Shown: one piece after another, positions 1-23,539 of the stretch | How positions within the stretch are numbered: the first letter of the stretch is position 1 | How the letters are laid out: each line of letters opens with the position of its first letter | Source of the DNA: an uncultured Rhodospirillaceae bacterium | GTDB taxonomy: Bacteria; Pseudomonadota; Alphaproteobacteria; GCA-2731375 | Assembly: GCA_964344935.1 (NCBI GenBank) | Contig: CAYFPL010000001.1 | Coordinates: forward strand, 1,276,303 to 1,340,302 | Direction: 5' to 3' | Length of the DNA: 64,000 nucleotides | Made by a program: the position numbers and the translations under genes | The notes under the pieces: model-generated | What the model was told of the DNA's origin: nothing | What the model saw: the letters and a program-made list of their open reading frames with translations, nothing else | Databases searched by the model: none

Positions 1-171
1 GGGGAAGCGGTGGAAACCCCGGTTTATATGCGCGACGATTTGGCACCGAGACACGAGATCGCGGGCCCGGCAGTGATCGAACAGTTGGACGCCACAACGA
101 TCCTGGCGCCTGGCGATCATTGCCAGGTCGACGACAGCGGCAATTTAAAGGTTGAGCTCTCCGATGCCTGA
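1..171 (+). CDS. 3' end (partial) of hydantoinase A / N-methylhydantoinase A family gene
   Basis: Frame 1 reads GEAVETPVYMRDDLAPRHEIAGPAVIEQLDATTILAPGDHCQVDDSGNLKVELSDA* with no upstream stop. This is a typical C-terminal tail of HyuA/oxoprolinase A proteins. Its stop overlaps the ATG of the downstream B-subunit gene (ATGCCTGA). Confidence 0.6.
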   Translation, partial: GEAVETPVYMRDDLAPRHEIAGPAVIEQLDATTILAPGDHCQVDDSGNLKVELSDA

Positions 172-1861
172 CAGTCCCGACACCGTTCCACTTGACCCAA
201 TCACCCTGGAAATCCTGCAGAACAGCCTGCGCTCCATCACGGACGAGACCTATATCGCCCTGACCAAGGCGGCCTATTCCACCAACATTAAGGAGCGTCG
301 CGACCATTCCACGGCCCTGACCGACGCCCAAGGCCGCCTGGTGGTACAGGCGGAAAACTCCCTGCCCATCCACCTCGCCTCCATGCTAGGAATGATGGAG
401 GAGTTGCTGGCGAAGTACCGGGCGGAAGACATGGTGGAAGGGGACATCTTCGTCGCCAACGACCCTTACGTGGCCGGCGGCACCCATCTGCCGGATGTCA
501 ATTTGGCAATGCCATGTTTCGCCGACGGCAAGCTGCTGGGTTTCATCTGCAATATCGCTCATCACGCCGATATCGGCGGCATGACACCTGGCAGCATGGC
601 CGGCGGCATGTCGGAAATCTATCAGGAAGGGCTGCGCATTCCCCTGGTGCGGCTGTTCAGGGCCGGGGAACTGGTGCAGGACATCTTCGACCTCCTGCTC
701 CTCAACGTCCGGGTGCCCCACGAACGCCGGGGCGATTATTTCGCCCAGGTCGCCGCCTGCCGCCTTGGCGCCCGCCGGCTGGGCGAACTGTGTGTTCGGT
801 ATGGCGCGGGTACCTTGACGGAGGCCTTCGCCGCCATCATGGACCGCACGGAAAGCCGACTGCGCACTGGTATTGCCGCCATCCCCGATGGCGTCTACGA
901 ATTCACGGACGTCCTGGATAACGACGGCATGGGAACCGAAGACATCCCCATTTCCGTTCGCGTCGATGTGAAGGGCGAGGATATCGCCTTCGATTTCGCC
1001 GGCACCGGACCGCAGATGAAAGGCAATTTCAACCTTACCTTCAATGCCACGCAATCGGCGGTCTATTACGTCCTCAAGGCGATGCTGGACCCGGACCTGC
1101 CCAATAATCATGGCCTGATCCGGGCGGTAGAGATCGCCGCGCCCCTGGGCAGCCTGGTCAATGCGGAACATCCCGCCGCCGTGGCGGGGCGGGCCAATAC
1201 CTCGCAGCGCCTGGTCGATGTGATCGTCGGCGCCCTGGCTCCCGCCCTGCCGGAACAGGCCGTAGGCGCCGCCAACGGTGCCAACGTCACGGCCGTGTTC
1301 TACGGCCATGATCCGCGCTACGACCGGGCCTATGTCTATCTGGAGACTCTGGGCGGCGGTTTTGGCGGCCGTTTCACCAAGGACGGCAAGGACGGCGTGC
1401 AGGTGCATATCACCAACACCTCCAACCTGCCGGTGGAGGCGATCGAGGCGGAGTATCCGCTGCTGGTGGAAAGTTATGGCCTGATCGAGGATTCAGGCGG
1501 CGCAGGTAAATTCAGGGGCGGCATGGGCATCCGCCGCGTGGTCCGCCCCGTGGATCACGACTGCGTCTTTTCCGGCATGGGGGAACGCTTCGTACACCGA
1601 CCCTGGGGCATCTTCGGCGGCAAGCCGGGCGCCACCGGCCGCTTCTCCATCCGCGGGCCTCATCACAACGACGAGACCCTGCCCGACAAACCGAACCACG
1701 TGCCTTTCGGCCCGGACGATGCCATCGTCATCGAAACCCCCGGTGCTGGAGGCTACGGCGAACCCTCAGAACGCGACCCGGACGCCCTGGCCGCCGACCG
1801 CCGCAGCGGCAAATTTACGGACACGTATCTGGCGGAGAATTACGGTTCCGAGGGCAAATAG
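164..1861 (+). CDS. Hydantoinase B / oxoprolinase family protein (HyuB-like)
   Basis: 566-aa ORF with hydantoinase_B family similarity (ANDPYVAGGTHLPD, GGGFGG motifs). The ORF track begins at TTG 152. ATG at 164 overlaps the upstream HyuA stop. Confidence 0.85.
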   Translation: MPDSPDTVPLDPITLEILQNSLRSITDETYIALTKAAYSTNIKERRDHSTALTDAQGRLVVQAENSLPIHLASMLGMMEELLAKYRAEDMVEGDIFVANDPYVAGGTHLPDVNLAMPCFADGKLLGFICNIAHHADIGGMTPGSMAGGMSEIYQEGLRIPLVRLFRAGELVQDIFDLLLLNVRVPHERRGDYFAQVAACRLGARRLGELCVRYGAGTLTEAFAAIMDRTESRLRTGIAAIPDGVYEFTDVLDNDGMGTEDIPISVRVDVKGEDIAFDFAGTGPQMKGNFNLTFNATQSAVYYVLKAMLDPDLPNNHGLIRAVEIAAPLGSLVNAEHPAAVAGRANTSQRLVDVIVGALAPALPEQAVGAANGANVTAVFYGHDPRYDRAYVYLETLGGGFGGRFTKDGKDGVQVHITNTSNLPVEAIEAEYPLLVESYGLIEDSGGAGKFRGGMGIRRVVRPVDHDCVFSGMGERFVHRPWGIFGGKPGATGRFSIRGPHHNDETLPDKPNHVPFGPDDAIVIETPGAGGYGEPSERDPDALAADRRSGKFTDTYLAENYGSEGK

Positions 1862-1877
1862 CCTTGGTTTCCGCGGT

Positions 1878-3494
1878 TCAGTAATCTCGCGCCGTGCCCT
1901 CTGTCGTAACGAAGCCTTCCACTAAATCGGCTTCGATCGCGTCTTGTGACCGGTCAGTCGGCTTGCCGAATCCGCCGCCGCCAGCCTCAATCAGGGTGAT
2001 GCGGTCGCCGGGCTGCAGTTCGTAGTGGCCCTTGGGGTCGACCGTTACATCGTTGATCCGGTGTTCCCTGGGCCGGCCCGGTTCGCCGCCCATGAGGCCC
2101 AAGGGTGGAAAGTCGGTGCGGTTAGCCATGCAGAAGACATTCATGATGTGACCGCTGTCGTTGCGGATCACCACCTCCTGGCCCAGGCCGCCGCGAAAGG
2201 CGCCCGCGCCGCCTGAATCTGGCAACAGGTGTTTGTGGGTCACCGTGGTCGATGTCAGAGTCTCCCAAACTTCCACCGGCACCACGGCCATGTTGGAGGG
2301 GCCCGGCGTGGTCTCGGCCCCGTCGCGGCCGTCCAGGGCACCGAAGCCGCCGGAGGCGAAATAGATGGTTGAAACGTCATGGCCGTCCCGGTGCCGGCCC
2401 TGAAAAGTCATCAGGTCGAGCATGCCGCAATCGGCCTGGATCTGTTCCGGCACTGCTGGCGCCAGGGCGCCGAATACCAGGGGCGAGACGAAATGGCCGA
2501 TCATGTGCCGCGCCCCGGTGGGCGAGGGCGGCTGCGCATTCAAAAGGCAGCCTTCCGGCGCCGTCACGGTAACGGGCACCACGCTGCCGCCATTATTGGG
2601 CAACTCCGGTGCGGTCAGGCACTTGATGGAGTAGAGCACCATGGCCTTGGTGTAACAGAACGGTACGTTGATGCCCTGGCGCACGCCGGGCGCTGTACCG
2701 GCGAAATCCACAGACAGGGCATTGCCCGCAACCTGGACCTTGCAGGCCAGGGTCAGGGCGCCCTCGACCCCTTCGATCTGAATGGCGTTTTCATAATCGC
2801 CGTCGGCCATTCTCCCGATCGCCGCCCGCGTCGCCTGTTCCGAGCGGCCGCGGATCTGCCCCGAGAGGGCCTGGAAGTCGGGCAGGCCGTATTCATGCAG
2901 GAAGGCCATGAGCATGTCATCACCCGCCTTCACGGCGGTGACGTTTGCCATCAGATCGCCGATCACTTGGTCCGGTGCGCGCACATTATTGCGCACCAGT
3001 TCGATAATGAAATCGTTGCGCCGGCCCGCTTCGAACAGCTTGCAGATCGGCAAGCGCAGGCCTTCGTGATAAATCTCCCGCGCCGCTGCGCCAAAGCCCA
3101 GGCCGCCTACATCCGGCAGGTGGGTGATGGAGATCACGTAGGCGACGATGCGGCCCTCGTGAAAGACCGGGCGCATAACGTTGATGTCAAATGTATGACC
3201 GGTGCCAAGCCAGGGATCGTTGGTGATTACGACATCGCCGGGCCGCAGGGTATCGGCGGGGAATTTGGCCAGCATGTGGGCCAAAGTGGCAGGCGCAGTG
3301 CCCATGAACACCGGCACGCTGTAGGTACCCTGGGCCATCAACTCGCCGTCCGCGTCCAGCAGCGCTACAGTCAGATCATAGCTTTCGCTGACGATGGTGG
3401 AGAACGAGGTGCGGACGAGGGTAGTGACGATCTCGTCAGACACCGCGACCAAGCGGTCCCACATGATGCCCACGCTGACAGCATCCAGGCTCAT
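1878..3494 (-). CDS. Hydantoinase B / oxoprolinase family protein (second paralog)
   Basis: 538-aa ORF (NDPWLGTGHTFD, HLPDVGG). Convergent with the plus-strand HyuB-like gene, 16-bp gap. Start ATG overlaps the stop of the upstream hyuA-like gene (ATGA at 3491-3494). Confidence 0.85.
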   Translation of the reverse strand: MSLDAVSVGIMWDRLVAVSDEIVTTLVRTSFSTIVSESYDLTVALLDADGELMAQGTYSVPVFMGTAPATLAHMLAKFPADTLRPGDVVITNDPWLGTGHTFDINVMRPVFHEGRIVAYVISITHLPDVGGLGFGAAAREIYHEGLRLPICKLFEAGRRNDFIIELVRNNVRAPDQVIGDLMANVTAVKAGDDMLMAFLHEYGLPDFQALSGQIRGRSEQATRAAIGRMADGDYENAIQIEGVEGALTLACKVQVAGNALSVDFAGTAPGVRQGINVPFCYTKAMVLYSIKCLTAPELPNNGGSVVPVTVTAPEGCLLNAQPPSPTGARHMIGHFVSPLVFGALAPAVPEQIQADCGMLDLMTFQGRHRDGHDVSTIYFASGGFGALDGRDGAETTPGPSNMAVVPVEVWETLTSTTVTHKHLLPDSGGAGAFRGGLGQEVVIRNDSGHIMNVFCMANRTDFPPLGLMGGEPGRPREHRINDVTVDPKGHYELQPGDRITLIEAGGGGFGKPTDRSQDAIEADLVEGFVTTEGTARDY

Positions 3495-5557
3495 TCTCCG
3501 CCCTCCAGTTCCGCGACCAGGTTGCCTTGTGGATCGACGCGCACCCGATCGCCGGGGCCGATCACAACGGTCGACTCCCGCTCTTCGATCAGGGCCGGGC
3601 CGGCAATCTCCGCGCCAGTGGCCAGTTGATAGCGGTCATAGACCGCCGCCGACTGGAACCCCCCGTCAAAATAGGCCTGCCGGTTGCCCTTGGCGATCAC
3701 GGCATCCGCGCCATTGGGAGCCGCCGTGAAAAGGGCTGGTGCAGGTGCGACGGCCTCCACCTTCCAGGTTGTGATGACCAGCGGCGCATCCAGCAAAGCA
3801 GCGCCATACACCGCCGCATAGGACTCACGAAACAATGCCGGGATATCGGCAAGTTCGGCACCGGCGGGCAAGCTGACTTCGATCTCGTGCCCCTGACCGT
3901 GATAACGCATGTCCAGACGGCGCAGCATCTCGGTCACCTGATCCGTAGCCCTTAAGGGCGCACCGGCCTGTTGTTCCAGGGCCGCGAAAGTGTCTTGAAA
4001 GTCCGCCGCCGTCAGATCGTCGAGAAAAATCTGTCGGGTGCGGGCTACTTCGAAAGTCAGGGGACTGGCCAGCAGCCCCAGGGCCGACATCACGCCCGCT
4101 GCCACCGGAAAGACCACCTTAGCGATGCCCAGTTTGCGCGCCACGCCCAGGGCATGCACCGGGCCGGAGCCACCGAAGGCGATCATGGTGCTGTCGCGGT
4201 AGTCAAAGCCCCGTTCCGAAGCGTGGATACGAAAGGCGCGGGCCACGTCTTCGTCGATGATCTCGTGGATACCCCAGGCCGCTCTTGCAAGCGACAGATC
4301 CAAGGGTGCTCCCACCGATGCGTCGATGGCATCTTCCGCCGCTTTTCGGTCCAGGGCCATGGCGCCGCCAAGGAAGAAGTCAGGGTCAAGGTAGCCCAGG
4401 GCCAAGTTGGCGTCCGTCAGCGTGGAGCATTCACCGCCCTGGCCATAACAGGCCGGTCCTGGATCGGCGCCGGCGCTTTGCGGCCCCACGGCTATGGCGC
4501 CGCGCACGTCAGGCTGGGCGATGGACCCGCCACCGGCGCCGATTTCGATCATATCGATCACCGGCGCCCGCACCGGCATGCCGCTGCCCGCCTTAAAGCC
4601 ATGCACCCTTGCCACTTCCTGGTGATATTCCTTGATTGCCCGGCCGCCGCGGATCAGGGCGCCCTTGGCCGTGGTGCCGCCCATATCGAACGACAGCACC
4701 TTGTCGCAAGCGAGGGCCCGACTGTGATGGGCTGACATCTGCGCCCCCGCCGCCGGGCCGGATTCAATGACGCGAACAGGAAAGCGCCGGGCGGTTTCCG
4801 GTGTCAATGTGCCACCACTGGATGACATGACATAAAGACCACCAGAGAATCCTAATTCCGCCAAGCCATGTTCCAGACGCCCCAGATAGTCGTCGAACAT
4901 GGGCTGGGTAAAGGCATTGAGCGCCGTGGTGGTGAAGCGCTCGAACTCTCGCCATTCGGGACAGACCTCGCTGGAAACGGAAACCGCGAGATCAGGGAAA
5001 TCTTCCGCCGCCATCGCCGCCAAGGCCTGTTCCTGCTCAGTATTGGCATAGCTGTGCAATAGACAGATGGCCAGGGAGGTGATGTTGTGTTCCTCGACCA
5101 ATTGGCCAAGATTGCGCCGCGCCTCCTGCAGATCCAACGGCACCTCGATGGTGCCATCGTAGTGACAGCGCTCCGTGACCTCGGCCCGCATGCGTCTTGG
5201 CACGATTGGATCGGGGAATGTCAGGCGAAGATCGAAGACGTCGTAGCGTTTCTCCTGCCGCATATCCAGGATGTCACGGAAACCCTTGGTCGTCAGCATG
5301 CCGGTGCGGGCGCCCTTGCGTTCGATTACCGCATTGGTGACCAATGTGGTGCCGTGGACGATCTCGCGCACCGCCGCCATGCTCACATCCTCCCGCACCA
5401 GCAGGGTCCGCGTTCCCTCAAGTACCGCACGGGACGGATCATCAGGTGTCGTCAGTTGCTTGTGAATGGCCAATCGCCCGCCCCGTTCGTCGTAGAGCGC
5501 GAAATCGGTGAAGGTGCCGCCGATATCGACGCCCAGTCTGTAGGGGCGGTCGGTCAT
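3491..5557 (-). CDS. Hydantoinase A / oxoprolinase family protein (HyuA-like)
   Basis: 688 aa. N-terminal RLGVDIGGTFTDFAL ATPase motif of the hydantoinase_A / ASKHA fold. Forms an A/B pair with 1878-3494. Confidence 0.85.
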   Translation of the reverse strand: MTDRPYRLGVDIGGTFTDFALYDERGGRLAIHKQLTTPDDPSRAVLEGTRTLLVREDVSMAAVREIVHGTTLVTNAVIERKGARTGMLTTKGFRDILDMRQEKRYDVFDLRLTFPDPIVPRRMRAEVTERCHYDGTIEVPLDLQEARRNLGQLVEEHNITSLAICLLHSYANTEQEQALAAMAAEDFPDLAVSVSSEVCPEWREFERFTTTALNAFTQPMFDDYLGRLEHGLAELGFSGGLYVMSSSGGTLTPETARRFPVRVIESGPAAGAQMSAHHSRALACDKVLSFDMGGTTAKGALIRGGRAIKEYHQEVARVHGFKAGSGMPVRAPVIDMIEIGAGGGSIAQPDVRGAIAVGPQSAGADPGPACYGQGGECSTLTDANLALGYLDPDFFLGGAMALDRKAAEDAIDASVGAPLDLSLARAAWGIHEIIDEDVARAFRIHASERGFDYRDSTMIAFGGSGPVHALGVARKLGIAKVVFPVAAGVMSALGLLASPLTFEVARTRQIFLDDLTAADFQDTFAALEQQAGAPLRATDQVTEMLRRLDMRYHGQGHEIEVSLPAGAELADIPALFRESYAAVYGAALLDAPLVITTWKVEAVAPAPALFTAAPNGADAVIAKGNRQAYFDGGFQSAAVYDRYQLATGAEIAGPALIEERESTVVIGPGDRVRVDPQGNLVAELEGGE

Positions 5558-5567
5558 GGCTGTCTCG

Positions 5568-7148
5568 TCACCGGTTATCCGGCAGGACGTCGACTGCGTC
5601 GCCGATGCCTCGTTCCCGCAACTCGTGGCGGGCGATCTCGTTTTTGGTCATGGTGCGGGGGAACTCCTCGACGAATTCGATGTAGCGCGGCACCTTGAAA
5701 AAGGCAATGCGGTCCTTGCACCATTCCACCAGTTCGCCCGGTTCAACCTCCGCGGCGGTTTGCACATAGGCCTTGATGTCTTCTTCGCCTATTTCCGAGG
5801 GCACGCCGACCACGGCGCAATCGACCACAGCCTCGTGGGCCGTCATGGCTTTCTCTACTTCAAAGGCGGAGACGTTCTCGCCGCGGCGGCGGATCCAGTG
5901 GGCCTCCCGACCGACAAAATAGACGAAGCCGTCCTCGTCCAGATAGCCCAGATCGCCGCTGTGGTACCAAAGGTTCTTCCAAGCAGCCAGGGTCTCATTG
6001 GGCTTGTTGATGTATTCCATCATGTAGGTATTGGGCACCTTGGGGCGGAGCAGGATCTGCCCGGTGGTATTGGCGGGCACAGGGTTGTCGTCTTCATCCA
6101 CGATCAGAACCTCGGCCCAGCCGTGGGGCCGGCCGCAGGAGCCGAGGCGACGGTCGAAAGTCCGTTCGCTGCAGATCAATACGCCCATCTCGGTCATGGA
6201 ATAGACCTCCATCATCGGCGTGCCGAAGCGTTCCTCGAACTCGTCACGCAGATCCCGGCGCACCTGACCCGCCGCGATGCCGACACCGATCCTAACCTTA
6301 TGGTCCATGTCCTTGTTCGACTTGGGCGCCCGCAGCAGCACGGCCATCATGGTGCCCAGGGGATCGATGATGGTAACGCCGTATTTACGGATTGTGGTCC
6401 AGTAGTTGGAGGCCGAGAACCATTTTTCCATGACCCCGGTCATGCCGTGATAGAGGGGGCCGGTGATGGCAAACTGCTGGCCGCCGATATGGAAGAAATG
6501 GGAATTGGCGAAATGCACGTCATCTTCGGTCGCTTCGGCGATATCGCCGTACCTGATGGCGGCAGCGATGTAATAGAGGTGTGAAACGAGCACTCCCTTG
6601 GGCATGGATGTGCTGCCGCCGGTGTAAACGATGCACATGGGATCCGCCGCGGCGACCTGGGCTTCGGGCAGGCTATCGTCGTCACCAACCAGGTCGTCGT
6701 ATGGCAAAGCGCCATCGACGGCGGTTTCGTCGCCCAGGACCAGAACCGTGGGTGCCACGGTCAATTCCGGCCTGGCGGCGATATAGGCGCGCGTCAATTC
6801 CTCGTCCACCACGAACAGCTTAGCGCCCGTGTCGTTCAGGGAATAGCAGAGGTCATCTTTGACCAGGGAGACGTTGAGGGCAGCGTAGACGGCGCCGATC
6901 TTGGCGCAGGCGAACCAGATCACCGCCTGCTCGATCGAATTGTACATCAGGGTTGCGACCACATCGCCCTTGCCGATGCCGTGTGCAATCAGACGGTTCG
7001 CCACGCGATTGGATAGCTCGTGGGCGTCGCCATAAGTCAGGGTGACGTCCCGGCAGATCAGGAACGGTTTCTCCCTCAATTCGGCCCGCATAATGATCAG
7101 GTCCCGCAAGGTTTCCGTATGGGGCGTGCGCCCCATAATGTCGATCAT
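5568..7148 (-). CDS. AMP-dependent synthetase/ligase (acyl-CoA synthetase family)
   Basis: AMP-binding signature YTGGSTSMPKG. Start chosen at ATG 7148 (MIDIMGRTPH), preceded by GAGGGTGGG. The longer ORF to 7187 would overlap the upstream gene by 26 nt. Confidence 0.8.
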   Translation of the reverse strand: MIDIMGRTPHTETLRDLIIMRAELREKPFLICRDVTLTYGDAHELSNRVANRLIAHGIGKGDVVATLMYNSIEQAVIWFACAKIGAVYAALNVSLVKDDLCYSLNDTGAKLFVVDEELTRAYIAARPELTVAPTVLVLGDETAVDGALPYDDLVGDDDSLPEAQVAAADPMCIVYTGGSTSMPKGVLVSHLYYIAAAIRYGDIAEATEDDVHFANSHFFHIGGQQFAITGPLYHGMTGVMEKWFSASNYWTTIRKYGVTIIDPLGTMMAVLLRAPKSNKDMDHKVRIGVGIAAGQVRRDLRDEFEERFGTPMMEVYSMTEMGVLICSERTFDRRLGSCGRPHGWAEVLIVDEDDNPVPANTTGQILLRPKVPNTYMMEYINKPNETLAAWKNLWYHSGDLGYLDEDGFVYFVGREAHWIRRRGENVSAFEVEKAMTAHEAVVDCAVVGVPSEIGEEDIKAYVQTAAEVEPGELVEWCKDRIAFFKVPRYIEFVEEFPRTMTKNEIARHELRERGIGDAVDVLPDNR

Positions 7149-7161
7149 TATCCCACCCTCG

Positions 7162-9177
7162 CTATTCGAACTGTCCGGCGAGGCCAACGGCGCCGGCCTG
7201 TTTCAGCGAGTCTATCTCGTCGTCGGCGAGGGACAAGACCCGGGCTAGGACCTCGCCGTCCTCATCACCCAGGATCGGTGCCGGCTTGTGGACGGCGGGC
7301 CGGCGGCCATCAACCCGCCAGGGGGCTGCAACCAATTCGTCCTCGCCGGTGAATGGATGCACAGACGGGACCCAGCCGCTGCAGTCGGCGAAGACCGATG
7401 CGCCGTCGGTTTCATCCAACTCCAGCATGTCGGTGTAATCGCCATCCCGCTCGCTGCAGGCTGCAACGATCTCGGCACGGCTGGCGCCATCCAAGGCCTG
7501 ACGCAGCGCCAACTTGTCTGAAAAGACCGCAACCGGAAAACTCACGGCGATATAACTGCCATCGTCGGCCGCCAGGATATCGCCTACGGTCTCCTCGTCC
7601 GGCATGGGCGTTCCTGCGAGGGTCGCCGCTGCTTCGATCTGGGAAACATCGAAAGCGCGGCCCTTCCCGTCGGCATGGACAGCCAAGGCGCCGGCAAGTA
7701 TGCCCATGGCGCCAAAGGCGGCGGCATTGGGATCCGACAGTGAGAAGGTCGGCGAGCCCAGGAATTCATCGCCTTCGCGGACCTGATCCTCGGCCCCGCC
7801 CAGGGCGCTCAAGACCAGACCATAAGAACGCAGGGCCTCGACACTGGAACCCCGGCCCGGGCCGCTCATGGACATCTGCACCAGTTTCGGATTGGCGTGC
7901 GCCAGGGCGGCTGCATCCAGTCCCAGGCGCTCCATGGTACCCACGGTGAAATTTTCGATCAGCAGGTCCGATTTCGCGGCAAGTTCTAGGGCCAGCCGCA
8001 AACCTTCCTCATGCTTCAGGTCCAGGGTCAAGCCGGATTTGTTGCGGTTCAGGCTATGGAAATAGAGCGAAGATTCGATCCTTGTCTTTTCGTCCATCTT
8101 CTTGCGCAAATGCTCCAGACCCCGGGTGCGGTAGAGATCGAAACGGCCCGGCGCTTCGACCTTGATTACGTCAGCGCCCAGGTCGGCGAGAATCTGGCCG
8201 ATCATGGGACCGGACCAGACCCAGCAGAGTTCCAGGCACCTGAGCCCGGCCAGCGGTCCGTCACCCCCGGCCATGTCCGCCCATGGATTCGATCCGCCCA
8301 CGCCGCTGCCCTGTTCGTGAATCTGAAACGGCATGCAGGGGACATCATCGACAATGAAACTGTCCCTGAAGACATCGCGCTCGGCCGCCTCCGCCTGGCT
8401 ATAAACCGGCGCGATGACGGCGCCATGAGCCAGGCCCTGGCGCAAGAGCTGATCGCGGCTGAACTGGGCCAGCGTGTCGCGCATCAGATCGTCCGCCTCT
8501 GCACTGTCCCGGGCCAGGGTGAAGGGATCTTGGAAGGCCTCGTCCTTGGCCCAGTCCGGATCGCCGATGGCCATGCGGATTTGCTGCCAATCCCGCCGGG
8601 AGCGGCCCAAAAGCGCCACATGGCCGTCCTTGCAGGGATAGAACCCCATAGGGAAGATGCCGCCATGATCAACACAGATGTGGCCATTACGCCGCCAGCT
8701 ACGGACCATCTCTTCCCGGCCGCCGGAATTCTGTAGGGAGAATACGCGGATCACATCGGCCGCCGAGACGTCGTACTCGATTTTTCCGTCGGCACCGTCA
8801 CGGCGGCGCCAGGCCTCCGCCAGGGCCAGGATGACGCCATAGATGCCGCACCATTTTTCGGGCATGTCGGCGGGCAATGGTCGGCCGGGGCCGTCCCTGT
8901 ATCCAATCACCGAGGCCGCACCGCCAACGGCACTGGCCAGGACGCCGCTGCCCCGACAGCCGACCTGGAAATCCCAGAGTCGGATCACACACGCAGCCTC
9001 GGACGGCTGATTATCGGCGACGATGGCAATGTCGGCCTGGTCCGGGTCCTGAGTGACGGAACCGCCTAACGCCTCAAGCCAATGCCGGGCATAATGGACG
9101 GACCGGTTGCCGGTCGATACTGCAATGCTTGCCGCCGCATCCAGCGGCAATTTCCTCGTTGGGCTCGCCGGGTTCAT
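7162..9177 (-). CDS. Family III CoA-transferase (CaiB/BaiF-like), unusually long tandem two-domain protein
   Basis: The C-terminal ~370 aa form a complete CaiB/BaiF-like domain (LRCLELCWVWSGPMIGQILADLGADVIKVEAP...). The N-terminal ~290 aa resemble the central and C-terminal part of a second CoA-transferase III domain. ORF track start 9183 is TTG. ATG at 9177 lies 2 nt after the upstream gene's stop. Confidence 0.75.
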   Translation of the reverse strand: MNPASPTRKLPLDAAASIAVSTGNRSVHYARHWLEALGGSVTQDPDQADIAIVADNQPSEAACVIRLWDFQVGCRGSGVLASAVGGAASVIGYRDGPGRPLPADMPEKWCGIYGVILALAEAWRRRDGADGKIEYDVSAADVIRVFSLQNSGGREEMVRSWRRNGHICVDHGGIFPMGFYPCKDGHVALLGRSRRDWQQIRMAIGDPDWAKDEAFQDPFTLARDSAEADDLMRDTLAQFSRDQLLRQGLAHGAVIAPVYSQAEAAERDVFRDSFIVDDVPCMPFQIHEQGSGVGGSNPWADMAGGDGPLAGLRCLELCWVWSGPMIGQILADLGADVIKVEAPGRFDLYRTRGLEHLRKKMDEKTRIESSLYFHSLNRNKSGLTLDLKHEEGLRLALELAAKSDLLIENFTVGTMERLGLDAAALAHANPKLVQMSMSGPGRGSSVEALRSYGLVLSALGGAEDQVREGDEFLGSPTFSLSDPNAAAFGAMGILAGALAVHADGKGRAFDVSQIEAAATLAGTPMPDEETVGDILAADDGSYIAVSFPVAVFSDKLALRQALDGASRAEIVAACSERDGDYTDMLELDETDGASVFADCSGWVPSVHPFTGEDELVAAPWRVDGRRPAVHKPAPILGDEDGEVLARVLSLADDEIDSLKQAGAVGLAGQFE

Positions 9178-9179
9178 AC

Positions 9180-10472
9180 TCAATCAGTAGCAAGCGGCAA
9201 GGGCACGGGCCCGTCGGATTTTGATGGCAGAGCAGTTACAGCCGTGCCGCGCGCCGACAACATATTCACTTGGTTGCGCGCCTCCACCTCCAGATCGACG
9301 AATTTCACGGCACCTTCGTCCCGTTTGCCCGTTACCTTGCCCCGCCACCACAGGGTATCGCCAACCATATTCGGTTTCAGTACGTCGACGGCCAATTTAT
9401 GCAGGAAACCGTGATCGCCGATCCAGTTGGTCAGCATGTGCTGCGCCCAGGCGATACGCTGGGGGCCTACATCGTAGGCTCCCCCCATGCCCACGTCCCG
9501 CCCGGTAGAGGCTTCCAGATGCCCGCGGCCAGCGGAATCCTTGGCCCCGGTTTCCTTGTTGATGTGATAATCCGCATGGCGGCGCCGATAACGGACCACG
9601 TCACCGTGCACGCCGCCGTAATGCAGCGCCCCCTGGGCGGCGGCATACCAGCCGATGATATCCATGATGGTCAGTGGACCCTTGATCACCGGCGGCACGT
9701 CATCGCCGATCTGCACATCCTCCCAGTAGAGCGGATCCGTGCCCCGCCGGGGCTCCGCCAGGATTTGTTCCTCGATATCCGCGAGTTCCGCCGGCTCGTA
9801 ACGATGGGGGACATGTCCCTTGGGTTCCTTGCCATCCTTGCGCTGACTGCCATCGCCCCGCGGCGTGCGGGCGCATTTGCCTACCGCGAAGGCGATCAAG
9901 GCGCCTTGTTGGTTATGGTATTTCAATTCGCCGGTCTGCAGAGCCCATTTGCCGAAACGGCGGCCGGATTTCACTTCCTGCTTGGTCAGCATTACATCCA
10001 CCTTGAAACTGTCGTCCAGGCGGATGTGGTCATACCAAGTCCATTCCGTGCCGGCATAGATCCATTGCACGCCGGCCAACTTGGGCGCGACGATGGTGGA
10101 ATCCACCGCATAAAGAATGCAGGGTGGCGCTACGATGCCCCCTGTAGGTCCGGCGGCAGCGTAATCCGCATCGAACCACAACGGGTTGTTGTCGCCGACG
10201 CCCCAGGCAAAATGCCGGATCGCATCCTTCGTCGCGGCTTCGATCCATTGCATGCGGTCGCGCCGCAGGGGTACGCCGATCAGTTCGGCGGCGGCGGCTA
10301 GGGTTTCTTCGTTGATCTTTCCCCAGGTCAAGTCAATCAGATCTCGTCCCGTACGTGCGACATGATTTAAGTGGCGGAATGCGCCCGCCCTCTTTGGGGC
10401 GGTGCGCAATAACGTCGATGGCGTAATAACCCTCAAAGTCTCCCGAATGGGAGCGCCGTTGTCAATCCACAA
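9180..10472 (-). CDS. MaoC-like (R)-specific enoyl-CoA hydratase/dehydratase, double hotdog fold
   Basis: Two hotdog-like halves (FAS1-like dehydratase N-domain plus MaoC C-domain). Stop TGA abuts the start of the CoA-transferase. The 5' end is uncertain: the ORF track starts at a TTG, with internal TTG/ATG candidates. Confidence 0.65.
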   Translation of the reverse strand: MWIDNGAPIRETLRVITPSTLLRTAPKRAGAFRHLNHVARTGRDLIDLTWGKINEETLAAAAELIGVPLRRDRMQWIEAATKDAIRHFAWGVGDNNPLWFDADYAAAGPTGGIVAPPCILYAVDSTIVAPKLAGVQWIYAGTEWTWYDHIRLDDSFKVDVMLTKQEVKSGRRFGKWALQTGELKYHNQQGALIAFAVGKCARTPRGDGSQRKDGKEPKGHVPHRYEPAELADIEEQILAEPRRGTDPLYWEDVQIGDDVPPVIKGPLTIMDIIGWYAAAQGALHYGGVHGDVVRYRRRHADYHINKETGAKDSAGRGHLEASTGRDVGMGGAYDVGPQRIAWAQHMLTNWIGDHGFLHKLAVDVLKPNMVGDTLWWRGKVTGKRDEGAVKFVDLEVEARNQVNMLSARGTAVTALPSKSDGPVPLPLATD

Positions 10473-10475
10473 TAA

Positions 10476-10510
10476 TATTGTCTATAGACAATAATTGTCG
10501 TCGCAATTAT
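10476..10510. promoter_or_regulatory. Putative operator: 18-bp perfect palindrome TATTGTCTATAGACAATA (10476-10493) overlapping a second inverted repeat ATAATTG-N6-CAATTAT (10491-10510)
   Basis: Read directly in the 43-bp AT-rich gap between the dehydrogenase gene end (10516) and the start of the long minus-strand operon (10472). Core TTGT-N6-ACAA resembles GntR/FadR-type boxes. Confidence 0.45.
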
Positions 10511-10515
10511 CTCAC

Positions 10516-11448
10516 TTACTCGCTCTCCAAAACCGCCCGAATATCGGCGGGATCCACTTCGATTTCCACCCCGGCACGCTCTTGTTGCAGGATCATGGCG
10601 GAGCGGGAATCCCTATCCCCCCAGCCCCGCCCCAGGGCCTCGGTCATATCGGCCACGGTGGCATTGATCAGACGCATGGGCACACCGAATTCACGCCCCA
10701 GCTCCGCCGCCAGGCTGACGTCTTTATGAGCCAGTTTCAGAGCAAAGTCGGCCGGGTCGTAGTTGTTAATCAGGTAATGCTCACCCAAGCTATCGAAAGT
10801 ACGCTGACGGCCCCGCGCCCCCTGGCGCACGGCCTCCCATAGGGCCAGGGGTTCCACGCCCGCTTTGACACCAACGGAGAAAACTTCCGCCAGGGCGGTC
10901 TGAATAGCATAGCCGGCGGCATTATGAACCAGCTTGGCAATGGAGCCGGCGCCGATGGGCCCGATATAGCGCACCTGATCGCCCAAGGCGTCCAAGGCTG
11001 CCCGGTGGGCGTTGAAGATTGCTTCATCACCTCCCACCCAGATTGCCAACTTACCCGAGGCCGCCCCCTTGGGCCCGCCGCTGACCGGTGCGTCGAGGCA
11101 GTGCAAACCCTTTTCGGCCATGACGCTGTGGACTTGACGGATCGCGGTCGGGGAATTGGTCGACAGATCGAACAGCACCGTGCCGGGCGCCATGCCCGCG
11201 ATCAGTCCGTTCTCGGCATCCAGGGCGACGGCTTCCACCTCTGGTGGGCCAGGCAGAGAGGTCAGGATGACATCCGAGGCCGCCGCCAATTCCCGCGGGC
11301 TGTCAGCCCATGCCGCACCCGCGGCCAAGTGGGGTTCGGCGACTTGGCGGTGAATATCGTGCACGGTTGTTTCGAAGCCGGCCTTGATGATGTTCCTGGC
11401 AAAGGATGCCCCCATAGTGCCCAGGCCGATAAATCCGATCTTTGCCAT
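10516..11448 (-). CDS. NAD(P)-dependent 3-hydroxyisobutyrate dehydrogenase family oxidoreductase (MmsB/GarR-like)
   Basis: N-terminal Rossmann motif MAKIGFIGLGTMG. 310 aa, typical beta-hydroxyacid dehydrogenase length. Confidence 0.85.
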   Translation of the reverse strand: MAKIGFIGLGTMGASFARNIIKAGFETTVHDIHRQVAEPHLAAGAAWADSPRELAAASDVILTSLPGPPEVEAVALDAENGLIAGMAPGTVLFDLSTNSPTAIRQVHSVMAEKGLHCLDAPVSGGPKGAASGKLAIWVGGDEAIFNAHRAALDALGDQVRYIGPIGAGSIAKLVHNAAGYAIQTALAEVFSVGVKAGVEPLALWEAVRQGARGRQRTFDSLGEHYLINNYDPADFALKLAHKDVSLAAELGREFGVPMRLINATVADMTEALGRGWGDRDSRSAMILQQERAGVEIEVDPADIRAVLESE

Positions 11449-11782: not shown

Positions 11783-12589
11783 CTAGCTCGTGGCGTCCTT
11801 GGGCGGGACGTCCAATCGCACCACCGCGCCTTCCAAATCCGGGCGGGGTGCGGGATAGCGCTGCATCACGAGGGGGTCGTGCCCCGGCACGATATGGGCA
11901 TTGTCCTTGGCCAAACTGCGCAGATTGCGGTGGCTTTCCAGCATCTGGAAAAGATCTTCGTGAGTCAGGAACGGTGTCTCCTGTTCGAAGCTCTCGTAAT
12001 AGTGGGCCACGTCGGAAGCCAGGACGACCGGTCCACGCGGACTGCCGGCGCGGACCGCCTGCATGCCGCGGGTGTGGCCCGGCAAATGATGCACGCTTAC
12101 ACCCGGGGCGATCTCGTCTTCGCCGTCGTGGAACACCACCCGATCCCCGTAGATTAGGCGGACCATGTCGATGACATCGTCCAGGCGGAAGGAATGGCGC
12201 AGGGCCGGGTGGGTCATGGCCCGGCCGGTCACAAGCGACATTTCCGCATCCTGGATGTGAAACCGCGCCTTGGGAAACTGCTCCAAATTGCCGGCATGGT
12301 CGTAATGCATATGGGTGATGATCACATCCTCGATTTCGGCGGCGTCGATATCCAGCATGGCCAAGCCTTCCGTTGGCGAACGCAAATATGTCCGACCCCG
12401 GCGCTCGCCTTCCTCGCGGCCGTAGCCTACGTCGACCACGATCGTGCGCTGCTCGTTGCGAAGGACCCAGATGAAGTAGTCCATGGCCATCGGCGCATCA
12501 TGGGGATCGCCATGCACGAACATGGTGCCGCGCTCCCCCATACGCTCGCCATACTTGATGGCAAATATTTCATAGCGGTCGTCCGCCAT
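11783..12589 (-). CDS. MBL-fold metallo-hydrolase (N-acyl-homoserine-lactonase-like)
   Basis: HxHxDH motif (ITHMHYDHAGN). Start at ATG 12589 (MADDRYEIF), preceded by GGGAGG. The 573-aa ORF in the track is an unsupported N-terminal extension. Confidence 0.75.
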   Translation of the reverse strand: MADDRYEIFAIKYGERMGERGTMFVHGDPHDAPMAMDYFIWVLRNEQRTIVVDVGYGREEGERRGRTYLRSPTEGLAMLDIDAAEIEDVIITHMHYDHAGNLEQFPKARFHIQDAEMSLVTGRAMTHPALRHSFRLDDVIDMVRLIYGDRVVFHDGEDEIAPGVSVHHLPGHTRGMQAVRAGSPRGPVVLASDVAHYYESFEQETPFLTHEDLFQMLESHRNLRSLAKDNAHIVPGHDPLVMQRYPAPRPDLEGAVVRLDVPPKDATS

Positions 12590-12652
12590 GCGCTTTCCTC
12601 CCTTGTCGGCTTGGCATTTAGTGTAACATCCTTCGCGAGCAGGGGGTCGAAT

Positions 12653-13624
12653 ATGCGGATCATCATCTATGGTGCCGGCGGCATCGGCGGCGTTATCGGC
12701 GCGCAATTGTTCCAGGGCGGCATCGATACGCTGTTGATTGCCAGGGGCGACCACCTCAAGGCTATTCAGGACAAAGGACTGCACTACCGCACGCCACATC
12801 AAGACGTGACGCTGCCTATTGACGCCGTGGGCCATCCCAGAGAGATCGACTTCCGCGAAGATGACGTGGTCATCCTGACCATGAAGACCCAGCACACCCG
12901 GGATGCCCTGGACGATCTGCGCGCCGCTGCAGGCGACGGCATTCCCCTGTTCTGCTGCCAGAACGGGGTGGCGAACGAGCGTATGGCGGCCCGCCGTTTT
13001 CGAAACGTGCATGCCCAAATGGTCTATTTGCCTGCCACGCAACTGGAACCGGGCACAGTGGTGACACACGCCGCCGCCACAATCGGGGTGCTGGACGCGA
13101 GCGTTTATCCCACGGGCAGTTCCAATCTGGTGGAGGAGGTGACGGCCGCCCTGGACAGCAACGGCTTCTCCGCCCGGCCCAACGCAACGGTGATGCGTTT
13201 CAAATACGGCAAGCTGATCATGAACCTTGGCAACGCCCTTTCTGCCGTCGCCCCGCCGGGAGAAGAGACAAAGGCAATCCGGGCCCAGTTGCGGGCGGAA
13301 GCCGAGGCGGTGTTCGAAGCCGCGGGCATCGACTGCGCCAGCCAGGAGGAAGAGCGGGCCCGTCGCGGTGATCTGATGAAATCGGCGGCCGTCGCTGGGC
13401 AGGAACGGGTCGCCGGCTCGTCGTGGCAGAGCCTGGCCCGGGGCACCGGCAATATCGAGGCGGACTTCCTGAATGGCGAAATTGTTCTTCTGGGCCGACT
13501 GCACGGCATCCCCACCCCCGCCAACCTAATCCTGCAGCACCTGGCCAACGACCTGGCGGCCAGGGGTGGTGAACCACAGAGCATTCCTTTGGCGGAAGTA
13601 AAGCGGCAGATCGACGGCGCCTAA
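12653..13624 (+). CDS. panE: 2-dehydropantoate 2-reductase (ketopantoate reductase family)
   Basis: MRIIIYGAGGIGGVIG Rossmann N-terminus of the ApbA/PanE family. Start ATG 12653 after AGGGGG. Divergent from the MBL-hydrolase gene across a 63-bp intergenic region. Confidence 0.8.
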   Translation: MRIIIYGAGGIGGVIGAQLFQGGIDTLLIARGDHLKAIQDKGLHYRTPHQDVTLPIDAVGHPREIDFREDDVVILTMKTQHTRDALDDLRAAAGDGIPLFCCQNGVANERMAARRFRNVHAQMVYLPATQLEPGTVVTHAAATIGVLDASVYPTGSSNLVEEVTAALDSNGFSARPNATVMRFKYGKLIMNLGNALSAVAPPGEETKAIRAQLRAEAEAVFEAAGIDCASQEEERARRGDLMKSAAVAGQERVAGSSWQSLARGTGNIEADFLNGEIVLLGRLHGIPTPANLILQHLANDLAARGGEPQSIPLAEVKRQIDGA

Positions 13625-14826
13625 GGCGGCTCCGCGCCCATTTCCAAATGCAGCTTCTCGCCATCGTAGGGGTGGGCGAGGGCCACCACTTCATCCAATT
13701 CGACGCCCAAGCCTGGAGCAGTCGGCGGGATGACATAGCCGTCTTGCCACTGGATCGGTGTCTTCAGGATCTCAGCGTGAAAGCCATCCCAGCGTTCGAT
13801 GCCTTCCAGGATCAGGAAATTTGGCGAGCAGGCCGCGATCTGGATATTGGCCGCCCCCACCACCGGACCGCAGTAGAGGTGTGGCGCGATCTGGGCCTGA
13901 TGAGTTTCCGCCATCCCTGCGATCTTTTTCGCTTCGAGCAGGCCGCCGACCCGGCCCAGGTTCATTTGTAGGATGGATGCCGCTTCCGCCTGCAGCACTT
14001 GGGCGAATTCGTACTTGGTGGTCAGGCGCTCTCCAGTGGCGATGGGGATGGAAGTAGCCTGGGCCACCTGTGCCATGGCCTGGGGATTGTCGGGCGGCAC
14101 CGGCTCCTCGAACCACAACGGCTCATAGTCCGCCAGGCGGCGGGCCATGCGTTTCGCGCCAGACACGGTGAACTGGCCGTGGGTGCCGAACAGTAGATCC
14201 GCCCGATCGCCCACGGCCTCTCGCAGGCGGCGGCAAAAGAGCTCCGATCGCTCCAAGTCGGGCAAACTTGGCTGATGTCCGTCATAGACCGTATAAGGCC
14301 CAGCGGGATCGAACTTCAGGGCCGTGAAGCCCATAGCCAGATATTCGGCCGCCCGCGCCGCCGCCAGGTCCGGGTCGTCATAGACATTCGCGCCGTCGGC
14401 TGGGTCGGGATACACGGGACCGTCGGCGGGATAGATATAGGTATAGCTGCGCAAACGTTCATGCACCTTGCCGCCCAGCAGGTTATAGACCGGCTGTTCA
14501 ACCGCCTTGCCAACGATGTCCCAGCAGGCCATCTCCAGACCGCTCAGAACACCCATGAGCGAGACATCCGGCCGCAATGTATAACCCGCGCCATAGACGC
14601 GCCGCCACAAGGCCTCGATCCCAAAGGGGTCGTGTCCTTCCACATGGCGGGCAAAGACGTCATCGATCATGGCGACCATGGCCGCCGGCCCAAAGGTGGC
14701 GCCATAGACCTCGCCGAGCCCGCTGATACCGTTGTCAGTCTCCAACTTCAGGAAGATGAAATAGCGCCCGCCGAAGCCAGGCGGCGGATTGCCGACGACG
14801 AAGGTCTGCAGGGATTGGATTTTCAT
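13621..14826 (-). CDS. Mandelate racemase / muconate lactonizing enzyme family protein (enolase superfamily)
   Basis: MR_MLE family similarity (e.g. LKFDPAGPY, EEPVPPDN). Start ATG 14826 (MKIQSLQTFVV). Convergent with panE, overlapping by 4 bp. Confidence 0.8.
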   Translation of the reverse strand: MKIQSLQTFVVGNPPPGFGGRYFIFLKLETDNGISGLGEVYGATFGPAAMVAMIDDVFARHVEGHDPFGIEALWRRVYGAGYTLRPDVSLMGVLSGLEMACWDIVGKAVEQPVYNLLGGKVHERLRSYTYIYPADGPVYPDPADGANVYDDPDLAAARAAEYLAMGFTALKFDPAGPYTVYDGHQPSLPDLERSELFCRRLREAVGDRADLLFGTHGQFTVSGAKRMARRLADYEPLWFEEPVPPDNPQAMAQVAQATSIPIATGERLTTKYEFAQVLQAEAASILQMNLGRVGGLLEAKKIAGMAETHQAQIAPHLYCGPVVGAANIQIAACSPNFLILEGIERWDGFHAEILKTPIQWQDGYVIPPTAPGLGVELDEVVALAHPYDGEKLHLEMGAEPP

Positions 14827-14897
14827 GACGGCATCACTTGTTCTATCAGCAAAATTAAGGGGACAATGTTCTCTTAGCAGCACCTAGGAGCCCGGTC

Positions 14898-20997: not shown

Positions 20998-21016
20998 ACG
21001 CAAGGACTTACGGCAA

Positions 21017-21886
21017 ATGCTGGCTGGAAAATGGGGCGTCTGGTACGCCCCCAACAGGATGCCCCGGGAAGAGATTACGCGCCTGGCGCAGGAGACCGAG
21101 GCAGGCGGCTATGACACTTTATGGTATCCGGAGGCCATGGCCTATGAGGCAATGGCCATGGGCGGATACCTATTGGGCCGGACGACGAAGCTGAACGTGG
21201 CGACCGGCATCGCCAATATCTATGTGCGCGACCCTTCGGCGGCCATACAGGGTCACAACACCCTGAACAGCCTGCACGATGGACGGTTCATTCTCGGCCT
21301 TGGCGTCTCGCACATTCCCATCGTGGAAGGGGCCCGCGGTCACGCCTATGGCAAACCGGTCACCACCATGCGCGCCTATCTGGCTGCCATGGAAGCAGCG
21401 CCTGTGCAGATAAAGGCGGATAAACGCCAGGTCGTCCTGGCGGCACTTGGGCCGAATATGCTGGCCCTTTCGGCGGAAATGGCGGATGGCGCCCTTCCCT
21501 ATAACGTCACGCCGGAACATACCCAACGGGCGCGGGAAATACTTAGCCCCGGCAAGGCCCTGTGCGTGGAACAAAAGATCTGTCTGACGGACGATGCCGC
21601 CAAAGCCCGCGATGTCGCCGCCGCGCAGCTGCAAATGTATCTGGGCCTACCTAACTACCGAAACTGCTGGCTGAGCCTGGGATTTTCGGAGGATGAACTG
21701 TCAGGCCGGGGCAGCGACCGGTTCCTCGACGCCATGGTCGCCTGGGGCAACGAAGACACCATCCGCGCCCGGCTGCAGGAACATTTCGATGCCGGCGCCG
21801 ATCACGTGGCTATCCAGCCCTTCGACCCCGACGGCGGCAACTCGCCCGATTGGAAGGCCCTGGCCACGTTCGCGCCGGGCGGCTAA
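21017..21886 (+). CDS. LLM-class (luciferase-like) flavin/F420-dependent oxidoreductase
   Basis: Luciferase-like monooxygenase family similarity. Start ATG 21017 chosen; the track ORF begins earlier, at 20942, and would overlap the upstream gene by 56 nt. Confidence 0.7.
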   Translation: MLAGKWGVWYAPNRMPREEITRLAQETEAGGYDTLWYPEAMAYEAMAMGGYLLGRTTKLNVATGIANIYVRDPSAAIQGHNTLNSLHDGRFILGLGVSHIPIVEGARGHAYGKPVTTMRAYLAAMEAAPVQIKADKRQVVLAALGPNMLALSAEMADGALPYNVTPEHTQRAREILSPGKALCVEQKICLTDDAAKARDVAAAQLQMYLGLPNYRNCWLSLGFSEDELSGRGSDRFLDAMVAWGNEDTIRARLQEHFDAGADHVAIQPFDPDGGNSPDWKALATFAPGG

Positions 21887-22956: not shown

Positions 22957-22958
22957 GC

Positions 22959-23534
22959 ATGGCGCCGAAACAGACCCCCTCGCAGACGGTGGGCCCATAC
23001 TTCGCCTATGGCCTGACGCCAGAGCAATACGGCTACGACTACAAACAGCTCGCCGGCAACAGCCTGAGGGAGGACGGCGCCGAGCCGATCATCATCCGGG
23101 GCCAGGTATTCGATGGCAATGGCGATACCGTGCGGGACGCTGTGTTGGAACTGTGGCAGGCCGACAGCCAGGGCCGCTACGCCCATCCCGCCGACCAAAG
23201 GAGCACCAACACCGGTTTTGGCGGTTTCGCCCGGGTCGGAACCGGAACCCGGGATGGCAATTTCTACGAGTTCGAGACGGTCAAGCCGGGCGCCATCGGC
23301 GACGGCCAGGCGCCCCATATCACCGTGGTCCTGTTCATGCGGGGTTTGTTGAACCACGTCTATACCCGCATCTACTTTTCTGACGAAGCAGCAGCCAACA
23401 GCGACGACCCTGTCCTGAACCTGGTTGATGAAGACCGCCGCGGCAGCCTGATCGCCCATCGAGAAGACGGCAATACCTACCGTTTCGACATCCACATGCA
23501 GGGTGACAGGGAAACCGTGTTTTTCGACGCCTGA
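22959..23534 (+). CDS. pcaG: Protocatechuate 3,4-dioxygenase alpha subunit
   Basis: PcaG-like (TPSQTVGPYF, APHITVVLFMRGL, ends ETVFFDA). Start 3 nt after the pcaH stop. Confidence 0.9.
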   Translation: MAPKQTPSQTVGPYFAYGLTPEQYGYDYKQLAGNSLREDGAEPIIIRGQVFDGNGDTVRDAVLELWQADSQGRYAHPADQRSTNTGFGGFARVGTGTRDGNFYEFETVKPGAIGDGQAPHITVVLFMRGLLNHVYTRIYFSDEAAANSDDPVLNLVDEDRRGSLIAHREDGNTYRFDIHMQGDRETVFFDA

Positions 23535-23539
23535 GGCCG

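Follow-up and report, generated by a model that had tools for sequence, protein, structure and literature searches.

Three divergent HyuA–HyuB gene pairs in a Rhodospirillaceae contig, one within a conserved aminotransferase–thiamine diphosphate enzyme module

INTRODUCTION

In the genomes of marine heterotrophs, few 'family-only' annotations are as numerous as those of hydantoinase/oxoprolinase genes, and to our knowledge very few of their substrates have been established. Adenosine triphosphate (ATP)-dependent lactamases have biocatalytic value for the hydrolysis of stable lactams (PMC11033972). What role might several such genes play when they lie together in one genome segment? This question is raised by a 64,000-nucleotide (nt) stretch of an uncultured Rhodospirillaceae bacterium (assembly GCA_964344935.1, contig CAYFPL010000001.1, positions 1,276,303 to 1,340,302), hereafter the window, which carries three pairs of A (HyuA-type) and B (HyuB-type) subunit genes. 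A preliminary description of the sequence had regarded them as substrate-specialised, uncharacterised ring-opening or carboxylating enzymes. Our analysis indicates that they are probably three separate, non-interchangeable two-subunit enzymes of the hydrolase ('Hyd') branch, with the pair-specific roles proposed below.

RESULTS AND DISCUSSION

Three deeply divergent pairs

Pfam and the open reading frame (ORF) listing agree with the preliminary description on three complete B genes, two complete A genes and one A tail, arranged A-B, A-B and B-A (Table 1), and neither revealed a further Hyu-family gene in the window. A2, A3, B1, B2 and B3 gave full-length Pfam matches (E 1e-13 to 1e-187), and the A1 tail aligned to Hydant_A_C at profile positions 143–184 of 193 (22.5 bits, cut-off 21). 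The remaining ORFs of 530–690 amino acids (aa) encode an adenosine monophosphate (AMP)-forming ligase, a coenzyme A (CoA)-transferase, a thiamine diphosphate (ThDP)-dependent enzyme and a sodium:solute symporter according to Pfam, and further large ORFs outside the family encode pyruvate carboxylase and xanthine dehydrogenase. Read directly from the sequence, the paired genes overlap by 8 nt (A1/B1, ATG164 versus TGA169–171), 4 nt (A2/B2, ATGA) and 11 nt (B3/A3). These overlaps are compatible with the translational coupling that had been stated for all pairs, the coupling itself being deduced from them. An alternative TTG start at 152 is possible for B1, and the A3 ORF runs from 47844 to 49964, with the ATG at 49940 as its likely start.

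Pairwise identity is 35–40% among B1, B2 and B3 and 47% between A2 and A3. Against solved structures, identities reach 28–36% with N-methylhydantoinase (7HK5) and caprolactamase (6YRA) and 23–25% with acetophenone or acetone carboxylase. This supports the view, formed from sequence comparison, that the three pairs are deeply divergent paralogues rather than redundant copies and that none is orthologous to a characterised enzyme, as the preliminary description had supposed. Because the B subunits are only 35–40% identical, at most one pair could be the orthologue of any single enzyme, such as 5-oxoprolinase, and because the pairs are located in different operons, redundancy as 5-oxoprolinases cannot apply to all three. 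Bacteria of this lineage commonly have several hyuAB paralogues, so that the presence of three pairs is in itself ordinary and the enzymes are further members of a known family; the features that merit further work are the Lys-type kinase site and the conserved module of pair 3, both described below.

Relation to characterised systems

Among solved structures, N-methylhydantoinase (PDB 7HK5/9H03; A2 392 bits, B1 293 bits) gives the highest score for each of the five complete subunits, at 29–36% identity and, for B1 against the B half of 7hk5, 34%. It has the same domains and hydrolyses cyclic amides at the expense of ATP, the activity predicted for the window pairs; its A and B parts are fused in a single 1288-aa chain, whereas the window genes are separate. 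No creatinine deaminase, N-carbamoylsarcosine amidase or sarcosine oxidase domain was found in the genes adjoining the pairs in the window, and among the loci of B2 homologues a single one (L002, 71% identity to B2) has a creatinase gene, some 7 kb away from the homologue.

The CapAB caprolactamase of Pseudomonas jessenii (PDB 6YRA) and the OplBA lactamase of P. putida share the alpha-beta two-subunit architecture and Pfam domains of the window pairs. CapAB also has the same Asp/Thr/Lys residues at the ATP site and the same Asp-His-Asp-His metal site in its B subunit, and its B-A gene order matches pair 3. According to the published account (PMC6061476), an aminotransferase then acts on the ring-opened amino acid of the CapAB pathway. 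CapAB differs in sequence (28–34% identity), and the caprolactamase equivalogs NF050156/NF050157 (NCBIfam, cut-off 1000 bits) score only 201–296 bits for B1–B3 and 466–485 bits for A2 and A3. Moreover, the hydrophobic pocket residues of CapB are not conserved in the window B subunits. The PDB chain 6yra_A carries the label '5-oxoprolinase' and is in fact CapA.

A two-subunit hydrolase pattern

Weidenweber et al. (PMC5214803) separated three branches of the family: hydrolases are encoded by no more than two genes, in acetone carboxylases a gamma gene is added, and acetophenone carboxylases comprise four or five genes, carboxylase subunits being 100–150 residues longer. All three window pairs display the hydrolase pattern, with two genes, short subunits (B 538–565 aa; A 688–698 aa) and no gamma subunit. 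The genes flanking each pair were identified, and none is a gamma, alpha' or epsilon subunit gene or a small Cys-rich ORF. The published 'conserved hydAB order' is kept in pairs 1 and 2 and not in pair 3, which is ordered B-A like capBA.

Similarity scores follow the same division. Bit scores to N-methylhydantoinase and caprolactamase (B 167–293, A2 336–392) far exceed those to the acetophenone (Apc) or acetone (Acx) carboxylases (B 60–115, A2 174–232). The acetophenone carboxylase equivalogs ApcA/C/D (cut-offs 1250–1500 bits) yielded 74–281 bits, and there is no five-gene apcABCDE organisation. For acetone carboxylase (acxABC, with a gamma gene and an alpha subunit of about 776 aa), only partial matches of 60–70 bits were obtained, limited to the N-terminal 120–230 residues or so of the alpha subunit. 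ApcABCDE and AcxABC share homologous alpha and beta core subunits and the metal tetrad with the window pairs and differ in their additional subunit genes and in beta-type subunits that exceed those of the window by 120–240 aa. Because the published hydrolase pattern fits, we read all three pairs as predicted ATP-dependent cyclic-amide hydrolases and not as ketone carboxylases, and the 'carboxylating' half of the preliminary description is disfavoured.

Catalytic residues are retained throughout. Mutagenesis showed that caprolactamase needs Asp11 and Asp295 of CapA and Asp41, His99, Asp102 and His124 of CapB (PMC8453981). Both A2 and A3 retain the CapA ATP-site residues D11, T15, D18, K32, D295, G298 and T299, and the CapB tetrad recurs in B1 (D47/H108/D111/H133), in B2 (D40/H100/D103/H125, invariant in 82/82 clade members) and in B3 (D42/H102/D105/H127, invariant in 81/81). 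At the fourth ligand position, His124 in CapB, 7HK5 (7hk5_A) has Gln, whereas CapB, Apc beta and B1–B3 have His. The tetrad is common to hydrolases and carboxylases (PMC8453981), so the active-site comparison that had been suggested for telling the two apart is uninformative.

A charge reversal in the kinase site of A2 and A3

One residue does set two of the pairs apart. At the position of CapA Asp302, which adjoins the presumed phosphorylation site, A2 and A3 have Lys within the motif DMGGTTAK, and this Lys is kept in 78 of 79 A3-clade and 53 of 60 A2-clade members, the exceptions being co-located A1-type genes. A1-type subunits, N-methylhydantoinase, CapA and the acetone carboxylase beta subunit have GGTSxD instead. 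The equivalent residue in the acetophenone carboxylase alpha' subunit is Lys281 (PMC8453981), and the motif of this proposed bicarbonate kinase, DVGGTTTK, resembles that of A2 and A3. Judged from these alignments, pairs 2 and 3 form a sub-branch in which the charge of the kinase site is reversed. We take the reversal to reflect an anionic substrate; it could also leave a small door open to bicarbonate activation.

A conserved gene module around pair 3

In the window, pair 3 is embedded in an operon with 4-nt gaps or 4–11-nt overlaps between its genes (Table 1). The aminotransferase encoded beside B3 has branched-chain aminotransferases as its best PDB matches, and the ThDP enzyme encoded beside A3 has catabolic acetolactate synthases (about 178 bits), its scores lying far below the family cut-offs (272 versus 509 bits). 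Four B3 homologues (68–83% identity) keep the aminotransferase-HyuB-HyuA-ThDP enzyme core in otherwise different surroundings.

A B3-clade alignment scanned against species-representative genomes recovered 80 loci at 57–86% identity; the adjacency counts below refer to loci with enough flanking sequence. These loci belong to marine Alphaproteobacteria (Rhodospirillaceae-like genomes, Thalassobaculaceae, SAR116, strain BAL199, Jannaschia seohaensis and Pelagibius) and to Gammaproteobacteria (Woeseiaceae, Porticoccaceae, Steroidobacteraceae and Ca. Foliamicus), with one further locus in a Chloroflexota metagenome-assembled genome (MAG). The gene immediately after B is an A3 homologue in 70/70 loci, that immediately before HyuB encodes the aminotransferase in 57/71 (8 more have it within 7 kb), and the ThDP enzyme lies directly downstream of HyuA in 53/63 (and within 7.4 kb in 4 more). 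The alpha/beta hydrolase is near the module in only 11/67 loci and is for this reason an accessory gene.

Clustering of all neighbouring ORFs identified a TctC-TctB-TctA tricarboxylate-type transporter in 31–34 loci, an acyl-CoA-dehydrogenase-like (ACAD-like) gene in 24, a divergent LysR regulator in 19 and an aldehyde dehydrogenase (ALDH) in 16; an ADP-forming CoA ligase, an MFS transporter, a TonB receptor and an HpcH aldolase occur occasionally. In the B subunit itself, Arg459, at the position of CapB Phe468, is present in 80 of 81 clade members, a hint from sequence that agrees with an anionic substrate. Locked in a conserved transporter-aminotransferase-lactamase-ThDP module, the pair-3 clade offers a concrete, testable entry to a new substrate and pathway, and cultured carriers exist (Jannaschia seohaensis DSM 25227 and strain BAL199).

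We considered the ACAD-like neighbour as a glutaryl-CoA dehydrogenase and rejected this assignment: its best match is acryloyl-CoA reductase (208 bits), and all scores are far below the cut-offs. A 6-oxopipecolate/2-aminoadipate route for pair 3 is consequently not supported by this test. A gene of the RPE65/carotenoid-cleavage-oxygenase family (53534–54886, + strand) diverges from the pair-3 operon, an arrangement kept only in the three closest relatives (L013, L020 and L022).

Pair 2 as a probable free-standing cassette

A2 and B2 close a string of six co-oriented, tightly packed genes (1878–11448) in the order dehydrogenase-like gene, hydratase, CoA-transferase, AMP-ligase, A2 and B2, which also occurs in some relatives at 81–87% identity. 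One Hyd-branch enzyme with a CoA ester as its substrate is known from such company: IaaCE, the 2-oxoindoleacetyl-CoA gamma-lactamase of Aromatoleum aromaticum, is encoded in an indoleacetate operon with a CoA ligase and a family III CoA-transferase (PMC5214803), a likeness to pair 2 in gene context. The corresponding role, in which pair 2 would be a lactamase on a CoA thioester in one pathway with the ligase, CoA-transferase, hydratase and dehydrogenase, was the one we favoured first. It was downgraded when 80 metagenome loci, collected by means of a B2-clade alignment, showed that the ligase is not conserved: it adjoins the pair in 3/6 loci at an identity of at least 77% and in 0/33 at 58–70%. 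Furthermore, no neighbouring family recurs in more than 9/80 loci, and at 71–72% identity B2 homologues are flanked by IS66 elements or by unrelated pyridoxal phosphate enzymes (a class III aminotransferase and a beta-eliminating lyase). We now regard an IaaCE-like role as unlikely.

The A subunit, in contrast to these neighbours, lies directly upstream of the B2 homologue in 48/51 loci. Because the CoA-ligase/CoA-transferase neighbourhood is lineage-specific, being absent from all 33 more distant loci, pair 2 is best seen, on this comparative evidence, as a self-contained and sometimes mobile cassette whose local context is an unreliable guide to function. The preliminary description had used operon context as evidence of specialisation; this stands for pair 3 and, through its TRAP transporter, for pair 1, but fails for pair 2, whose surroundings are not conserved beyond the closest relatives; of the three contexts, that of pair 3 alone is evolutionarily robust. 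Pair 2 thereby illustrates how adjoining genes can mislead neighbourhood-based guesses.

Loci L001, L003 and L004 (7809–11668 in each) contain an identical HyuA-HyuB pair, with a B subunit 71% identical to B2, beside IS66-family transposase genes, which lie on both sides in L001 and L003 and downstream only in L004. Because this identical pair adjoins IS66 genes at three different genomic places, the two-gene cassette of the B2 clade appears to be mobile. Several B2-clade loci (L103, L104, L114, L132 and L140) have a second, divergent B-like gene directly after the pair, about 34% identical to B1. In L103 (7863–15535), a 697-aa ORF (13442–15535) follows that gene; should it be of A type, the array would read A-B-B'-A'. 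The CoA-transferase of the window string is 673 aa long, some 270–300 residues beyond typical members, and with its two Pfam stretches may be duplicated or fused; relatives carry a matching 676-aa form.

Pair 1 and a TRAP-type transporter

The dctP-dctQ-dctM genes lie upstream of pair 1 in all close relatives with enough flank, and from these relatives we judge that pair 1 forms the end of a dctPQM-hyuA-hyuB operon. Carboxylates are the usual cargo imported by TRAP systems. A gene with an alanine-racemase fold lies downstream of the pair in four loci; in a more distant locus (74% identity) the pair is followed by NUDIX, D-glutamate-cyclase-family (D-Glu_cyclase) and isochorismatase-family genes, and in another it faces a TAXI-TRAP transporter. 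The substrate of pair 1 is therefore probably an imported carboxylated lactam, and its racemase and D-Glu-cyclase neighbours in relatives suggest a 5-oxoproline-like compound, for example. A further, thin hint is the weak similarity (47 bits) between the DctP of pair-1 relatives and 2PFZ, which binds pyroglutamate. The use of L-pyroglutamate as a substrate in the sea is documented, and SAR11 handles it by the unrelated PxpABC (PMC11485210).

B1 and B2 are convergent, with ends only 16 nt apart (1861–1878), which leaves no space for separate intrinsic terminators. Between pairs 1 and 2, relatives carry a sulfotransferase or an alanine-racemase-like gene.

Proposed mechanism and alternatives

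Family membership, catalytic residues, divergence and synteny statistics are shown by the data; the following chemistry, step order and substrates are inferred. By analogy with characterised members, the A subunit, an ASKHA-fold ATPase, would phosphorylate a cyclic amide (lactam, hydantoin or imide) at its carbonyl oxygen, and the activated intermediate would pass to the metal site of the B subunit, where the ring would be hydrolysed open at the cost of one ATP. Pair 1 would open an imported carboxylated lactam, e.g., a 5-oxoproline-like one. For pair 3, an acidic lactam would be taken up (by TctCBA in many relatives) and opened by HyuBA with ATP to an amino (di)acid; the class IV aminotransferase would convert this to a 2-oxo acid, which the ThDP enzyme would decarboxylate to an aldehyde that may then undergo oxidation or CoA activation (relatives carry ALDH and ACAD-like genes). 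This five-step route is the simplest pathway that would use all pair-3 parts.

More tentatively, and at rather less than even chances, the pair-3 cluster, which extends among others to Rhodobacterales, may represent an undescribed, widespread marine pathway for an acidic lactam of dissolved organic matter, in which the Lys-type HyuA could phosphorylate an anionic substrate or bicarbonate. If so, the acidic lactam would be a hitherto unrecognised component of dissolved organic matter, and the Lys-type HyuA of pairs 2 and 3 could be a mechanistic variant between hydrolases and carboxylases.

Several points weigh against these proposals. Literature searches on the module and on marine hyuAB functions returned nothing relevant, and the window's own pair-3 operon contains no transporter gene. 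Given an aminotransferase that scores above the IlvE cut-off and a ThDP enzyme nearest to acetolactate synthase, the module may be linked to branched-chain amino-acid chemistry instead of a simple Ehrlich-type degradation. The Lys-for-Asp exchange, common to Apc alpha', is as compatible with a carboxylase-like step as with an anionic lactam. At about 30% identity the mapping of pocket residues depends on the alignment, mid-protein positions having shifted between two alignments, and of the B-subunit mapping we kept only the tetrad and the Arg459/CapB-Phe468 position. Finally, the divergence argument relies on the mutual identity of the pairs, the comparison set including no proven OplAB/OPLAH-type 5-oxoprolinase, of which the PDB holds none.

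The same two enzyme assignments could make the pair-3 module biosynthetic or a salvage route, for instance one in which a lactam is the source of glutamate, the amino donor in a branched-chain pathway of aminotransferase and acetolactate-synthase type. We consider this improbable: the frequent TctCBA, MFS, TonB receptor, LysR, ALDH and ACAD-like neighbours are typical of catabolic operons, and the ThDP enzyme stays well short of the acetolactate-synthase cut-offs.

There is likewise little to recommend a reading of one or more pairs as ATP-dependent ketone carboxylases, whose beta-keto acid would be processed by the product of a neighbouring gene, the CoA ligase for pair 2 or the ThDP enzyme for pair 3. 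The family does have such members, the apc operon also includes a CoA ligase (PMC5214803), caprolactamase itself is bicarbonate-dependent (PMC8453981), and A2 and A3 carry the GGTTxK of Apc alpha' rather than the GGTSxD of hydrolases and Acx beta. Nevertheless, every pair is without a gamma (or alpha'/epsilon) gene, the B subunits fall short of the 684–776 aa of carboxylases, ApcD/ApcC scores remain at 74–281 bits against cut-offs of 1500, acetone carboxylase alpha is matched in its N-terminal part only, and the CoA ligase beside pair 2 is not conserved.

Least credible of all is that the three pairs are redundant housekeeping 5-oxoprolinases recycling spontaneously formed pyroglutamate: the generic family annotation, the lack of conserved B2-clade neighbours expected of a metabolite-repair enzyme, the pyroglutamate-like associations of pair 1 (TRAP, racemase and D-Glu-cyclase) and the relevance of pyroglutamate as a marine substrate (PMC11485210) would suit it, but the B subunits are too divergent for more than one pair to be such an orthologue, conserved pocket and kinase-site residues differ, and pair 3 is locked in a module with its own aminotransferase and ThDP enzyme, which would be superfluous for glutamate.

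Other genes of the window

Table 1. Coordinates of the gene pairs and other features in the 64,000-nt window
Feature	Coordinates	Strand	Remarks
A1, HyuA-type, C-terminal 56 residues	1–171	+	Pfam Hydant_A_C; gene cut at window start
B1, HyuB-type, 565 aa	164–1861	+	Hydantoinase_B full length, 623 bits, E 3.8e-187
B2, HyuB-type, 538 aa	1878–3494	-	Hydantoinase_B, 462 bits, E 2.7e-138
A2, HyuA-type, 688 aa	3491–5557	-	Hydant_A_N + Hydantoinase_A + Hydant_A_C
AMP-forming acyl-CoA ligase	5568–7187	-	AMP-binding + AMP-binding_C; 10 nt upstream of A2; exact start uncertain
Family III CoA-transferase, extra N-terminal ~300 aa	7162–9183	-	CoA_transf_3, two stretches; below all NCBIfam equivalog cut-offs
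Double hot-dog (MaoC/FAS1_DH-like) hydratase	9180–10472	-	PF13452 and PF01575
3-Hydroxyisobutyrate-dehydrogenase-like NAD(P) oxidoreductase	10516–11448	-	NAD_binding_2 + NAD_binding_11; first gene of pair-2 string
Luciferase-like monooxygenases flanking the protocatechuate genes	20942–21886, 24745–25764
Protocatechuate 3,4-dioxygenase beta subunit	22249–22956
3-Carboxymuconate-cycloisomerase-like lyase	23540–24829
PuuE-type allantoinase	26148–27065		Polysaccharide deacetylase fold
Amidohydrolase	27062–28393
Membrane urate oxidase	28869–30080		Urate_ox_N
Bmp/ABC nucleoside-type transporter	30114–34985
XdhC	34832–35824
Xanthine dehydrogenase Mo subunit	35828–38161
Xanthine dehydrogenase Fe-S/FAD subunit	38151–39635
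Two M20 amidohydrolases	40103–42622
Adenine deaminase	43569–45308
ThDP-dependent enzyme, acetolactate-synthase-like	46237–47847	-	TPP_enzyme_N/M/C; 4-nt overlap with A3; last module gene
A3, HyuA-type, 698 aa	47844–49940	-	Hydant_A_N + Hydantoinase_A + Hydant_A_C
B3, HyuB-type, 543 aa	49930–51561	-	Hydantoinase_B, 475 bits, E 3.3e-142
Class IV branched-chain-type aminotransferase	51554–52492	-	TIGR01122 ilvE_I 254 bits (cut-off 245.6); 8-nt overlap with B3
Alpha/beta-fold hydrolase	52497–53489	-	Weak NCBIfam alpha/beta-hydrolase matches; first gene of pair-3 operon here

The nearest relatives of the window (81–90% identity) are marine MAGs labelled Rhodospirillaceae or Alphaproteobacteria. G+C content varies between 58 and 64% along the window, and Rfam and tRNA scans of it were both empty. 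Apart from the pairs, the window contains a purine-catabolism island (26148–45308), which also includes an RpiR regulator, and genes of a protocatechuate branch (22249–24829). At 11783–13624, a long plus-strand ORF and a long minus-strand ORF share some 1.3 kb; because their Pfam domains, a metallo-beta-lactamase fold (-) and ketopantoate reductase ApbA (+), occupy separate parts, the overlap is an ORF-extension artefact of high G+C and not a real antisense gene pair.

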